Positions 59,507 to 64,000 of a DNA stretch of 64,000 nucleotides are shown here, piece by piece. The stretch lies in the NCBI RefSeq assembly GCF_000026545.1, contig NC_011601.1; one strand, written 5' to 3'. The position numbers were made by a program, and so were the translations under genes. The notes below the pieces were generated by a model. The model did no database searches. It saw only the letters and a list, made by a program, of their open reading frames with translations, and was not told the DNA's origin. Origin of the DNA: Escherichia coli O127:H6 str. E2348/69 (GTDB taxonomy: Bacteria; Pseudomonadota; Gammaproteobacteria; Enterobacterales; Enterobacteriaceae). Numbering within the stretch: the first letter of the stretch is position 1; the number at the start of each line of letters is the position of its first letter.

Positions 59507-59934
59507 TTATCGGGTCATGTTGATGCCGGATGCTTTCTGCTCCAGCATACGTTTCGCCAAATCCACAATGACGGCTGCGGCTTCAACCGGCGGCGTGCCG
59601 CCCTGGTGAATGTTAGAGATACAGGTACGGTCGGCCTCAACGGTGGTTGCCATACGCGGCGAGTAAACGGCGTAGCAGGAGAGACTTTCTGACTGCCCCA
59701 ACCCCGGACGTTCACCCACCAGCAGGATCACCACTTTCGCGCCAAGAAGTTCGCCAATCTGATCTTCAATCTTCACGCGACCGTAACGCACAAAGAACGG
59801 TGTGCCGACTTTCAACCCGGCCTGTTTCAGGCCCGCCATCAGCGGTGGCAGGATCTCTTCGTAGTTCACGGTGATCGCATCAGTTGACAGGCCATCAGAA
59901 ATAACGACCTGTACGTCCGGATTAGCAACACACT
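59507..59934 (-). pseudogene. eutC: Ethanolamine ammonia-lyase light chain EutC, 3' fragment only (5' part displaced by prophage insertion)
   Basis: The frame reads (C)[34 protein letters not shown]... to the stop at 59507. Identity to eutC ends at 59934, where prophage-end sequence beginning TG starts. Confidence 0.85.
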
Positions 59935-59950
59935 TGTGGGGTAGTGTTCA

Positions 59951-59969
59951 ATTCTGGGCGGAGTTAGTG
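59951..59969 (+). repeat. Putative transposase-binding end repeat 1
   Basis: ATTCTGGGCGGAGTTAGTG lies 16 bp from the prophage terminus. Compare repeat 2. Confidence 0.5.
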
Positions 59970-60024
59970 CAGCCTGGTAGAACCGGCAAGCCTTGTGTGG
60001 CGCGGGGTGTGGTGATTTAGCGTG

Positions 60025-60042
60025 ATTCTGGGCGGATTTGTG
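60025..60042 (+). repeat. Putative transposase-binding end repeat 2
   Basis: ATTCTGGGCGGATTTGTG shares ATTCTGGGCGGA with repeat 1. Confidence 0.5.
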
Positions 60043-60076
60043 AGAAATGACCAAAAACGCTTTTTTTTGCGCTTTT

Positions 60077-60085
60077 TTCTGGGCG
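60077..60085 (+). repeat. Partial third copy of the end repeat core
   Basis: TTCTGGGCG lies within a T-rich stretch (gcgcttttttctgggcgctttt). Confidence 0.35.
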
Positions 60086-60246
60086 CTTTTGATCTGGTTC
60101 TGCTACAAACTTAACGGGTTTTAAATGCTTTTAAAAAGAGTTTTATCCTTACCCGTTTTCCTCAATTTGTTCTCATCTGTTGTGTTCAGTTTTGTTGTGG
60201 TTATTGCTGATTAGCTAACAGCACACGCCCCGCCAAAACGAGGCGC

Positions 60247-60894: not shown

Positions 60895-61027
60895 TTTTTC
60901 TTTCCTCTATAACTCATTGATTTTAATTGCAAAAACCATATAAAGACCAAAATCAAAAAGAAAATACAAAGAAAGGGCTATTTTTGCTTTACATGGGCTA
61001 TATATGGATCAATACTTATATCCGAAG

Positions 61028-61049
61028 GGATAACACGGCGGTGTTATCC
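61028..61049. promoter_or_regulatory. Candidate operator palindrome in the repressor/ner divergent control region
   Basis: ggataacac-ggcg-gtgttatcc is a perfect 9-bp inverted repeat. A further gataac half-site lies at 61055..61060. Confidence 0.4.
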
Positions 61050-61076
61050 GCACAGATAACTTTTAAGGGTAACCTA

Positions 61077-61313
61077 ATGATGGTTAGAAATGAAGTAATG
61101 AACAAAGACTGGCACCGCGAGTACATCGTTGCCGCTGTGCACACCAAAGGTTTTACATTGCGTGAACTTTCTGAACGCGCTGGTCTAAAAAAAGACTCTT
61201 TAAAAAATGCACTGTATCGCTCATGCCCTAAATATGAACGCATCATAGCCGATGCTATTGGTGTGGAACCTGCGGAGATCTGGCCAAGCCGGTATGCCAG
61301 TAAGGCGGCGTAA
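61077..61313 (+). CDS. Ner/Nlp-family DNA-binding protein (Mu Ner equivalent)
   Basis: The likely start at 61077 is preceded by aaggg. MMVRNEVMNKDWHREYIVAAVHTKGFTLRELS...IIADAIGVEPAEIWPSRY parallels Mu Ner (...DWHRADVIAGLKKRKLSL...IIANALETKPEVIWPSRY). The track ORF start at 60927 is probably too far upstream. Confidence 0.8.
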   Translation: MMVRNEVMNKDWHREYIVAAVHTKGFTLRELSERAGLKKDSLKNALYRSCPKYERIIADAIGVEPAEIWPSRYASKAA

Positions 61314-63355
61314 TGTTTTATTCAGCCAATGAGCTGGCCGGTCTTCCTGGTTTGCCCGGTACAGTTCAGGGGGTGCGCTGGACGCTCAATCGGATCACAG
61401 AGACGCACCCAGAATGGAAGCGCAAGCGCGAAGGCACCAAAGCATTCGAGTATCACATCGACTGCCTGCCCGCTGAAGCGCAGAAAGTTTTACGTAAGCG
61501 CCTGACTCATCAGGTCCTGGAAGATGCACAACTGCCCGCCGTAGTTGAGCAGAAAGCAGTTAAAAACGTCGCCGTTCGCGATGAACTGGAGGTGATGGTC
61601 AAATGCCCGGAGCTGGCATTACGCGAAGTCCAGTCACTGACCGACAAGCAAAAGGCCATCGCTGATGCGCGGATATTGCTGGCTACTGAAGTGCATAAGC
61701 TGCGCGAGTATGCCGGAATGACCAGGAAGGCCGCTTTAAAGCACATCGTTGATGGTGTGCGCATGGGGGCGTTACCTGACCGCATTATCGAAGCAGCGAA
61801 TACTGCAAATGCACGTCAGGGAAAGCGAACCGGTGTCAGCACCGGCAGCCTGGATAGCTGGTACTCCAGCTGGGTGATGGCGCGCGGTGATGCCAATCAG
61901 TTACTGGCGTTACTGGCTCCCGGTCATCATAAGGGAACACCGTGGGAGCAGGTCTGGTGGTTGAGCGATTTCTTTATGTTCTATCGCTCATGGAAGCGCC
62001 CGACTGTTGAATATGCGTATCGTGAGTTTTCAGCCTGGTGGCATGAAAAACACGCGAATGATGCGGGAATGCTGGCGGCACTGCCTTCAGTTCACGCAGT
62101 AAGACGGGTGTTAAGCAGCGTCCCGGTGATTGTTAAAGAGCGTTTCCGCTCCACCGGTTCAGCCTGGCGTTCGCTCAATCCCTTTGTGCGGCGCGACTGG
62201 ACATCATTACCGGTTAATGCGGTATGGGTCGGGGATGGTCACTGTATGAAAATGACCGCGTTTAACCCCCTGACCGGCAATATTTTCCGGCCAGAAGTGA
62301 CGCTGGTTATGGATGCGGGGCAACGCTTTGTTGTGGGCTGGTCACTGTCCCTGTCGGAGAACGTGATAGCCGTTGCTGATGCGTTACGTTACGGCATGGC
62401 GCAGCACGGGATACCGCTGATTTATTACTCCGATAACGGGGGCGGTGAAAAAAACCGGGTGCTTGATGCCGATATTACCGGGATTCTGCCCCGGCTGGGT
62501 GTGGAACATCACACGGGGATACCAGGTAACCCGCAGGGGCGCGGGGTGATTGAACGGGCAAACAAAGGAATACCCAAAGACGTGGCTCTGAGTTTCCAGA
62601 CGTACTGCGCAAGGGATGCAGACAAGGAAACCGTAATGATGCAGCAACGGATTATGCAGTCAGCCATTAAGGCCACCCACAAAGGGAAAGAACTGACAAA
62701 ACGGCAGGTTAAGGCGAGGGATGAAATCCCCACCTTTGAGCAACTGCTGGCAGCCATAGAGCTGGAGGTCAGACGCTATAACAACCGGCCACACAGCAGC
62801 CTACCCCGCAAAGAGGATGGCGAATATTACAGCCCGGCAGCGTATCGCCGGAAACTGATAAAAGAGCAGAATGTTGAAATTGATTTCCTGTCGCCGGAAG
62901 AACTGCATGAAATGTTCAGACCGGAAGTGACGCGCAAAACATTTCGCGGGGAAATTCAGTTATTCAACAATATTTATTACTCATATGATCTGGCCGCAGA
63001 GCACGGGAATGAAGTCAGGGTCAGTTACGATATTCATGATGCAAACAGCGTCATTGTCCGGCGGGCTGATGGCTCTTATATCTGCGATGCCATCTGGAAC
63101 GGTAACAAGGTTGATGCCTTCGCTAAACCAGTTATCGAACAAAAACTGGAGAAACGCGTCAGGGGCCGCATTGCACGGGCTACGCAGAAAATCGAAGAGG
63201 CTAAACGCGAGCTTACCCCGGCTATTACGCAGAAGCCTGACTTTAATCTGGGATATGGACTGGAGCGCCCGGAGAAAAAGGAAAAAGAAGAACTTTATTT
63301 ATTCGCATCTGAACGCGAGCGCAATTTAAAGAAAAACGGCACAAACAACCGTTAA
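61313..63355 (+). CDS. MuA-like DDE transposase
   Basis: 680 aa. The N-terminus ANELAGLPGLPGTVQGV...REGTKAFEYHIDCLPAEAQ parallels the MuA N-terminus (ANLPGLPKTSAGV...GVKGGKAIEYNANSLPVEAK). DDE candidates: VWVGDGH, YYSDNGGGE, GRGVIERA. ATG overlaps the ner stop (taATG). Confidence 0.88.
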   Translation: MFYSANELAGLPGLPGTVQGVRWTLNRITETHPEWKRKREGTKAFEYHIDCLPAEAQKVLRKRLTHQVLEDAQLPAVVEQKAVKNVAVRDELEVMVKCPELALREVQSLTDKQKAIADARILLATEVHKLREYAGMTRKAALKHIVDGVRMGALPDRIIEAANTANARQGKRTGVSTGSLDSWYSSWVMARGDANQLLALLAPGHHKGTPWEQVWWLSDFFMFYRSWKRPTVEYAYREFSAWWHEKHANDAGMLAALPSVHAVRRVLSSVPVIVKERFRSTGSAWRSLNPFVRRDWTSLPVNAVWVGDGHCMKMTAFNPLTGNIFRPEVTLVMDAGQRFVVGWSLSLSENVIAVADALRYGMAQHGIPLIYYSDNGGGEKNRVLDADITGILPRLGVEHHTGIPGNPQGRGVIERANKGIPKDVALSFQTYCARDADKETVMMQQRIMQSAIKATHKGKELTKRQVKARDEIPTFEQLLAAIELEVRRYNNRPHSSLPRKEDGEYYSPAAYRRKLIKEQNVEIDFLSPEELHEMFRPEVTRKTFRGEIQLFNNIYYSYDLAAEHGNEVRVSYDIHDANSVIVRRADGSYICDAIWNGNKVDAFAKPVIEQKLEKRVRGRIARATQKIEEAKRELTPAITQKPDFNLGYGLERPEKKEKEELYLFASERERNLKKNGTNNR

Positions 63356-63373
63356 TTTAAAAGGTATTTAATT

Positions 63374-64000
63374 ATGAGTTTAATTACGCAATTAAATGAC
63401 GTAATGGCCCGTCGCGGCTATACGCAGACCCACGTCGCCCGTGCTATTGGTCGTAGCAGCGCCGTTATCAACCAGTATTTACAGGGTAAATATCAGGGCG
63501 ATATGGCTGATATTGAAGAACGCATTTCTGCCTTTGTGACCCGTGAGCGGGAAAAGGAAAACAGCCGCCGTATTAAAGCGAAATTTGTTGCCACCGGTAT
63601 GGCTGCCAAAGGACTGGAAGTGCTGGCCTATGCTCACCTGGAATGTGAAATCTGCGTACTGTATGGCGCGGCAGGTCTTGGCAAAACAATGATTCTGCGT
63701 GAATACGCCGCCAGAAACCGGGATGCGGTCCTGATTGAAGCTGACCCGGGCTATACAGCCAGAACACTGCTTGAGGAGCTGTGCCGCCAGCTGGGGGTAA
63801 AAGTTCGCGGCAATATCCACGAACTGATTGATGCATGTGTGCGAGAACTGCGTGATTCCGGTCGCCTGCTGATGGTGGACGAGGCTGAACTGCTCCCCTA
63901 TCGCGCACTGGAGGTTCTGCGCCGTCTGCATGACAAAGCGGGTATCGGGATTGTCCTGGCGGGTATGCCACGCCTTCTGATTAACCTCAAGGGACGTCGC
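63374..64000 (+). CDS. MuB-like AAA+ transposition ATPase, N-terminal 209 codons (3' end outside the window)
   Basis: Not in the ORF track because it is open-ended. The ATG at 63374 is followed by an open frame to the window end. It has an HTH (YTQTHVARAIGRSSAVINQYLQGKYQGD, compare Mu B ...ISSFINDKYNGD), Walker A GAAGLGKT (nt 63665..63688) and Walker B LLMVDEAE. Confidence 0.8.
   Translation, partial: MSLITQLNDVMARRGYTQTHVARAIGRSSAVINQYLQGKYQGDMADIEERISAFVTREREKENSRRIKAKFVATGMAAKGLEVLAYAHLECEICVLYGAAGLGKTMILREYAARNRDAVLIEADPGYTARTLLEELCRQLGVKVRGNIHELIDACVRELRDSGRLLMVDEAELLPYRALEVLRRLHDKAGIGIVLAGMPRLLINLKGRR

Follow-up and report, generated by a model that had tools for sequence, protein, structure and literature searches.

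The last part of a 64,000-nucleotide stretch of the Escherichia coli O127:H6 str. E2348/69 chromosome (contig NC_011601.1; hereafter the window) holds the left end of a Mu-like prophage that interrupts eutC, the gene for the ethanolamine ammonia-lyase light chain in the ethanolamine utilization (eut) operon. On the evidence set out below, we consider it very likely that this prophage is a 35,736-bp transposable phage of the Mu-like kind, complete and apparently functional, and that it was integrated into eutC by DDE-transposase strand transfer. E2348/69 is a published reference strain, both the split eutC and the Mu-type genes are already visible in its RefSeq annotation, and the insertion is not in itself a new discovery.

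A simple insertion splits eutC

The open reading frame (ORF) at 59507-59934 on the minus strand encodes the C-terminal portion of EutC, starting at Cys155 and matching positions 99-234 of the 235 in the Pfam EutC profile (E value 3.7e-52), and lies in the gene order eutB-eutC-eutL-eutK-eutR that is also found in K-12. An earlier, sequence-only reading of the window had placed the end of the eutC match at position 59934, with foreign DNA beginning in TG behind it, and comparison with the intact eutC of strain SCU-113 (L002) confirmed these coordinates exactly: identity ends right after 59934, positions 59935-59936 are TG, and the bases that follow the stop-point read TGTGGGGTAG... The eut locus of other E. 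coli contains nothing that corresponds to the sequence from 59935 on, and related sequences at other loci align from base 932-936 of a query that starts at window position 59000, that is, from about 59931-59935. Window positions 59000-64000 are 100% identical to three complete E2348/69 chromosome assemblies, and since the same junction is present in all three of these independent assemblies, it is not an assembly artefact.

Sequence beyond the window was read from NZ_LT827011.1 (locus L001), for which the window coordinate equals the L001 coordinate plus 56786. We observed that the right end of the element is adjoined by the 5' half of eutC, then by eutB and then by eutA, on the same chromosome and in the same orientation. 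A Mu-like prophage in eutC was what the sequence-only reading had proposed, with a right end expected in ...CA; the right end indeed reads ...CA, it and the eutC 5' half are found 35.7 kb further on, and the transposition genes are full length. When the two flanks are joined minus 4 bp, they align without a gap over 5,710 nt to an intact eutR-eutA region, and removal of the element together with one copy of the tetranucleotide CACT restores a eutC of 295 codons that differs from the SCU-113 protein by 3 substitutions. The insertion point falls at codons 154-155. Because taking out the element and one 4-bp repeat yields an intact eutC, we conclude that the prophage arrived by simple transposition, and since neither half of eutC shows decay, the insertion appears to be recent.

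A broken eutC would also result from a larger rearrangement or from site-specific insertion by an integrase at a hot spot in eut, and two observations could be taken to favor such an origin: the eut operon of K-12 is likewise interrupted by a prophage, CPZ-55, and the right end of the present element is invisible from the window alone. However, the other half of eutC lies 35.7 kb away in the same orientation, and the locus becomes colinear once the element and 4 bp are removed. RefSeq annotates no integrase gene in the element, no tRNA genes and no Rfam families were detected in a scan of the whole prophage and its junctions, and relatives of the element occupy many unrelated sites. CPZ-55 resembles the element in interrupting the eut operon, but it is a 6.8-kb remnant with a putative phage integrase gene, intZ, is unrelated to Mu, and is intergenic between eutB and eutA, splitting no coding sequence (PMC6379469). 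The statement in the sequence-only reading that K-12 eut was split by a prophage using a different mechanism is thus borne out. We regard rearrangement and integrase-mediated insertion as refuted for practical purposes by the right end, the empty-site overlap and the colinear reconstruction, and simple transposition as the origin of the split gene.

The eutC fragment itself is about 94% identical to most E. coli, and decay of a pseudogene was rejected as the reason. Divergence is mosaic across the eut region and only 3 of 295 amino acids are changed, which indicates allelic divergence. A 300-nt piece of eutC has 90-95% identity to 5,356 of the 5,385 matching records, and the E2348/69 eut region (window 57227-59934 plus L001 38885-42000) is 91.5-99.5% identical to SCU-113 per 200 nt, or 96.3% overall. 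The E2348/69 eutC is therefore an unusual allele, probably recombinant. The exact eutC-phage junction (GATTAGCAACACACT/TGTGGGGTAGTG) was not found in a metagenome scan. Coordinates of the features within the window are collected in Table 1.

Table 1. Features of the eut-prophage region in window coordinates.
Feature	Position	Strand	Description	Basis
eutR	57227..58279	-	intact, 350 aa, operon activator gene	ORF list and RefSeq annotation of identical sequence
eutK and eutL	58325..59497	-	intact shell-protein genes, downstream of the break	ORF list and RefSeq annotation
eutC 3' fragment	59507..59934	-	gene nt 461-888, part of codon 154 to stop codon	RefSeq pseudogene
Left copy of target-site duplication, CACT	59931..59934		right copy at L001 38885-38888	junctions compared with empty site
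Prophage, left 4,066 bp	59935..64000	+	part of the 35,736-bp element; whole element L001 3149-38884, 5'-TG...CA-3'	
L1 core, TTCTGGGC	59952..59959	+	putative transposase-binding site 18 nt from terminus	motif scan
L2 core	60026..60033	+		motif scan
L3 core	60077..60084	+	overlaps the hairpin region (60053-60076, minus strand) downstream of the repressor gene	motif scan
Lysogeny repressor	60247..60894	-	215 aa, CI-type helix-turn-helix (HTH)	Pfam, PHROG
Divergent control region	60895..61076		between repressor and ner	
Ner-like early regulator	61077..61313	+	78 aa	Pfam HTH_35, E value 9e-26; 43% identical to Mu Ner
MuA-type DDE transposase	61313..63355	+	680 aa	Pfam, PHROG, PDB, MuA alignment
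MuB-like AAA+ ATPase	63374..64000	+	first 209 of 297 aa, gene cut by window end	Pfam, PHROG, BLASTP

The target-site duplication is 4 bp

The left junction reads ...GCAACA(CACT)/TGTGGGG... and the right junction ...GTTACA/(CACT)GCGC..., where parentheses enclose the repeat and the slash marks the end of the element; the bases before the right junction are GAAGTTACA. At the insertion point the intact eutC allele reads CAACACACTGTGC, and the empty site is GCAACACACTGTGC. For comparison, six independent insertions of related prophages were fetched, located in a PAAR/toxin gene (encoding a zincin-like metallopeptidase toxin), at yfcC, in the carB-caiF interval, in ypdF, in cirA and at locus L005. 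The right end of the L005 insertion was not found, so that the set used for duplications consists of five relatives and the E2348/69 prophage. All six of these two-ended insertions have the form TGTGGGG...GTTACA and are flanked by 4-bp repeats, namely CACT, AGTA, GACA, ACTT, CGCT and CATT. Empty sites were compared for four of them: eutC (L002), yfcC and cirA (both in K-12; L009 and L010) and ypdF, for which the window itself served as the empty-site control (its positions 6317-6320, CGCT, are the exact target that a related Mu-like prophage occupies in strain Ec55). At all four sites, the overlap between the two flanks is exactly 4 nt.

The sequence-only reading had expected a 5-bp duplication in eutC, and this expectation was not borne out: the duplication is CACT. 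The eutC insertion taken by itself allows 5 bp only with an element that does not end in CA, and all three possible registers of a 5-bp duplication need ends other than TG...CA. Moreover, the fifth base mismatches the empty site in the yfcC, ypdF and cirA insertions, and 5 bp is therefore excluded. The same length is found in two Sp18-like phages that reside inside Stx phages, whose GenBank records carry features labeled 'duplication due to insertion' of 4 bp each; we confirmed these repeats, GATG and AGAG, in the sequence. The 4-bp duplication is thus solid, being present in six insertions of the E2348/69-type lineage and in two Sp18-like ones. We did not find a 4-bp duplication for Mu-like phages in the open full-text literature, outside which the E2348/69 and B3 genome papers lie. 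It already stands in the GenBank feature tables of Sp18-like phages. The consistent 4-bp length, common to this lineage and the Sp18-type phages, is the one mildly new point.

End repeats and transposition proteins

An 8-nt core, TTCTGGGC, is present 18, 92 and 143 nt from the left terminus in one orientation, and at the right end 18 and 40 nt from the terminus in the same orientation reading inward and 75 nt from it in inverted orientation, with the outermost repeat equidistant (18 nt) from both termini. Elsewhere it occurs only once more in the phage and once in the window's 59.9 kb of host DNA. The sequence of these repeats is unrelated to the Mu end sequences, as the sequence-only reading had maintained. 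Their three-plus-three arrangement, with the innermost right repeat inverted, resembles what we take to be the L1/L2/L3 and R1/R2/R3 layout of Mu, and we infer that the repeats are bound by the transposase.

The transposase contains the Pfam domains HTH_Tnp_Mu_1 (E value 1e-10), rve and Mu-transpos_C (E value 1e-16) and falls in PHROG 310, 'transposase' (E value 4e-195). It aligns with MuA at 21% identity over 616 residues, placing D308 and D374 opposite MuA D269 and D336. By motif, E414 (GVIERAN) would correspond to MuA E392 (PVERAF), giving a putative catalytic triad of D308/D374/E414. The D374-E414 spacing is 40 residues, as against 56 between D336 and E392 in MuA. Sequence matches in the PDB include the MuA core (1bco, 4fcy), the MuA I-alpha domain (1tns) and retroviral integrase cores, the last of which (e.g. 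4mq3) score slightly above the MuA core by way of the motif GIPGNPQGRGVIE. Residues 354-419 (window 62372-62572) contain the catalytic-core motif GIPGNPQGRGVIERAN. The adjacent ATPase matches Pfam AAA_22 (E value 4.5e-23) and TniB as well as PHROG 296, 'DNA transposition protein' (E value 1e-104), and is 32% identical to Mu B. Repressor, Ner-like protein, transposase and MuB-like ATPase thus follow the junction, which agrees with the canonical Mu left-end gene set that had been read from the window. We tentatively propose that the E2348/69-type and Sp18-type phages may form a group of MuA-family transposases with a 4-nt target stagger, a GIPGNPQ...E core motif resembling that of retroviral integrases and a 40-residue spacing between the second Asp and the Glu.

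From these components, the insertion into eutC can be pictured as follows. The 680-aa transposase would recognize three TTCTGGGC-core repeats at each end, and the terminal 3'-CA ends would be joined to target phosphates staggered by 4 nt, with the MuB-like ATPase presumably delivering the target DNA. Gap repair would then produce the CACT duplication at eutC codons 154-155. Thereafter the CI-type HTH repressor, divergent from the ner-A-B early operon, would keep the prophage silent.

Repressor and control region

The repressor has a weak match to Pfam Phage_CI_repr (E value 2e-6) and a stronger one to PHROG 3037, 'transcriptional repressor' (E value 4.5e-58); it shows no BLASTP similarity to Mu c, and no relative was found among PDB structures. 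The repressor of Mu, in which the DNA-binding domain is homologous to the N-terminal domain of MuA, is accordingly of another type, and the earlier view that the element's repressor is not recognizably Mu c holds.

Among the relatives, repressor alleles are 67-86% identical, and Ner is 100% conserved in 6 relatives. This combination of varied repressors with a constant Ner suggests the existence of several immunity types. In the intergenic region between the two genes, a promoter scan returned a sigma-70-like early promoter candidate at 60988-61016 on the plus strand. Just downstream of it, and upstream of ner, lies a perfect 9-bp palindrome, GGATAACAC-N4-GTGTTATCC (61028-61049), which is invariant in all 7 relatives, while the repressor-side part of the region varies with the repressor allele. 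The variable part would thus be expected to hold the repressor operators, and the palindrome may be a Ner site or another conserved site. On the other side of the repressor gene, a terminator-like hairpin is present at 60076-60053 on the minus strand, between the repressor stop codon and the left end of the prophage. Read-through into eutC'-eutL-eutK-eutR is therefore not assured.

Gene content and evidence for activity

Annotation together with PHROG and Pfam matches shows that the element encodes, besides the divergent repressor, the Ner-like HTH_35 protein, the MuA-type transposase and the MuB-type ATPase, a Kil protein (PHROG 2679), DUF3164, gp16/GemA and Mor proteins, two holins, a GH108 lysin, a DUF1804 protein, a DNA methyltransferase and the large terminase (terL). 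Structural genes encode a DUF935 portal, F- and G-like proteins, a protease, a gpT major head protein, sheath, tape measure, an N-like DNA-circularization protein and baseplate proteins. By annotation and BLASTP matches, the gene order is colinear with that of Mu. The gene directly ahead of terL encodes the DNA methyltransferase (L001 16593-17333); most relatives have this gene, and L003 lacks it. No BLASTP match to Mu Com or Mom was found among the proteins of the element.

A tail-fiber region resembling the invertible G segment is bounded by 19-bp inverted repeats (AAACCTTGGTTTGGGAGAA; L001 36692-36710 and 38594-38612) and contains alternative fiber and assembly genes in opposite orientation. 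Since the adjoining gin gene is reduced to 31 codons, tail-fiber switching has probably been lost, and an invertase would have to act in trans for the segment to invert. The truncation is common to relative L004, and tail-fiber switching is non-essential in Mu. All conserved genes of the element are full length in comparison with six relatives, gin being the sole visible loss.

Evidence on the mobility of the phage comes from its distribution. The exact 680-aa transposase is present in at least 116 blocks of public assemblies, and the left 4,066 nt recur without gaps at 99.9-100% identity in 7 of the 10 places returned, with seven different host flanks that include P2-like prophage genes, the csgC region and a nonribosomal peptide synthetase gene. 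These near-identical copies at seven other sites indicate that the same phage has transposed recently, and they are the strongest available argument for a working transposition machinery.

Several points weigh against our conclusion that the prophage is complete and functional and that its insertion inactivated eut. The Gin-type invertase (L001 38674-38766, 77% identical to the Gin N-terminus) is truncated as described above. The element is present as a single copy at the same site in three E2348/69 stocks, no transposition having been seen over their laboratory history. Its 4-bp duplication departs from the lengths quoted for transposable phages, which are 5 bp for Mu and 6 bp for B3 (PMC8705779). 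Induction, particle production and a Eut-negative phenotype are predictions from sequence, and eut, which carries a second lesion in eutA (see below), may have been dead before the phage arrived.

Given these points, the element might be a cryptic, non-inducible remnant that neither transposes nor forms particles despite its complete look. The shortened invertase and the unchanged single copy in all three laboratory lineages would fit a remnant, as would the finding that the deposited phage genomes hold no phage above about 50-54% protein identity to it. Yet none of the conserved genes is shortened in comparison with six independent relatives, the putative DDE triad is present along with full repeat sets at both ends, the 99.9-100% identical copies (left 4 kb) at seven other sites in other isolates require recent transposition, and the lack of decay in the restored eutC makes the insertion a young one. 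We consider a remnant improbable, and an apparently functional phage remains our preferred interpretation.

Relationship to known transposable phages

Among 50,697 deposited phage records, we found no megablast nucleotide match to the element. The best protein matches in this collection are to Pseudomonas phage VW-6B (transposase, 49%) and Klebsiella phage ST405-OXA48phi1.1 (transposase, 45%; portal, 54%), and to the transposases of Yersinia phage Tongde (46%), Sp18-like phages (44%) and Mu-like phages of Mannheimia and Haemophilus (about 40%). ST405-OXA48phi1.1 and VW-6B have a similar genome size of about 35 kb, but they share no nucleotide similarity with the element. As all phage matches are below 60% protein identity, the element belongs to an E. 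coli lineage without a close representative in the deposited phage collection. Within E. coli, DNA related to the left end is present in 62 of 5,426 complete genomes at varied sites, and at least 14 distinct insertion sites of the lineage were counted; the eutC site is occupied only in the three E2348/69 assemblies.

Mu itself (Muvirus mu, NC_000929) resembles the element in the order of the repressor, ner-A-B-kil, gemA/mor, lysis, head, contractile tail and invertible tail-fiber segments, in its TG...CA termini, in its use of many unrelated sites, in MuA domain architecture and in having a MuB-like ATPase. Protein identities between the two are 21% for A, 32% for B, 43% for Ner and 24-42% for structural proteins. 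Unlike Mu, the element has a CI-type repressor, a separate methyltransferase gene before terL, a truncated gin, other end repeats and a 4-bp duplication. Its sequence features place the element in the known class of transposable (Mu-like) phages: the MuA architecture, the adjacent MuB-type ATPase, the TG...CA termini with their repeats, the short target-site duplication at many sites, and its size and gene order. They place it outside the genus Muvirus, as we found no nucleotide relatedness to that genus, no 5-bp duplication and no Mu c-type repressor. The sequence-only reading had called it a distinct Mu-like lineage, and the 21% identity to MuA, the missing nucleotide match among phages and the unrelated repressor all agree with this description.

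The Sp18-type phages, comprising Sp18 of strain Sakai and Mu_JNE082796 and Mu_JNE122137 in Stx phages (LC727881, LC727895), are Mu-like transposable phages of E. coli (EHEC/STEC) with variable insertion sites (PMC10132054). They share the 4-bp target duplication with the element and differ from it in protein sequence (transposase 44%, B 32% and Ner 53% identical), in the core of the end repeat, which is TTTGATACC, and in one terminus, which is TA and not TG in outward-in orientation. The 31 N-terminal residues of Gin find a match of 74% in an Sp18-like element. In the open full-text literature, outside which the E2348/69 genome paper lies, we found no discussion of this prophage or of eutC in E2348/69.

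Consequences for the eut operon

According to its annotation, E2348/69 has intact copies of eutS, P, Q, T, D, M, N, E, J, G, H, B, L, K and R. The eutA gene, however, is split as well: a copy of the IS4-family element ISEc13 occupies L001 41978-43528, about 3 kb past the right end of the prophage, and is flanked by the direct repeat GTTTATCGAC. This junction, too, is present in only three assemblies among the 5,426 complete genomes, all of them E2348/69. An ISEc13 query gave 27-30 matches per E2348/69 chromosome, indicating about 27-30 copies. A further ISEc13 transposase gene lies within the window at 41802-43175, between cysP and ucpA.

The sequence-only reading had held that the phage inactivates the eut operon. 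The split of eutC supports this, yet because of the independent ISEc13 lesion in eutA the phage is not demonstrably the sole or the first cause. It is quite possible that ISEc13 had already killed the operon and that the phage is not the cause of the loss, although we stop short of favoring this order of events. The eutA lesion with its direct repeat, the restriction of that junction to E2348/69 and the evident activity of ISEc13 in this strain all lend themselves to such a history. Against it, the other eut genes and both halves of eutC are free of lesions, so that neither event can be old, and each lesion alone should be disruptive.

The earlier statement that the insertion disconnects eutR, eutK, eutL and the 3' part of eutC from the upstream eut genes proved right, the distance being 35.7 kb. 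All of this is antiparallel phage DNA, which would also stand between eutL, eutK and eutR and the main eut promoter, placed upstream of eutS. The phage genes and eut are on opposite strands (phage on plus), and RNA synthesis coming from the side of the eut promoter would therefore enter the prophage antisense from its right end. EutC is the essential small subunit of the lyase and its loss is expected to abolish ethanolamine catabolism; with eutC split and ISEc13 in eutA, the strain should be unable to catabolize ethanolamine. In the eut system of Salmonella and E. coli, eutR also has a weak promoter of its own, and basal EutR is therefore probably still made in E2348/69.

A possible accessory island next to eutR

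A block of about 5.9 kb (window 51312-57148) lies between hemF and eutR and is absent from K-12 and SCU-113, in both of which hemF abuts eutR. Besides a 1,149-aa SNF2-related protein, the block codes for a DUF1963 protein, a small membrane-like protein and a hypothetical protein; it may be a small accessory or defense island.

Implications

These results leave the current understanding of Mu-type transposition unchanged. The consistent 4-bp duplication slightly amends the 5-or-6-bp rule of thumb for delimiting transposable prophages in annotation. In E2348/69, the complete-looking prophage, whose lineage continues to move both within and between E. coli genomes, could give rise to insertion mutations. 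Those who use the strain should not assume ethanolamine metabolism, given the two eut lesions; ethanolamine is a gut nutrient and a signal studied in related pathogens, and with an intact eutR in the absence of ethanolamine catabolism, it could act purely as a signal in E2348/69.

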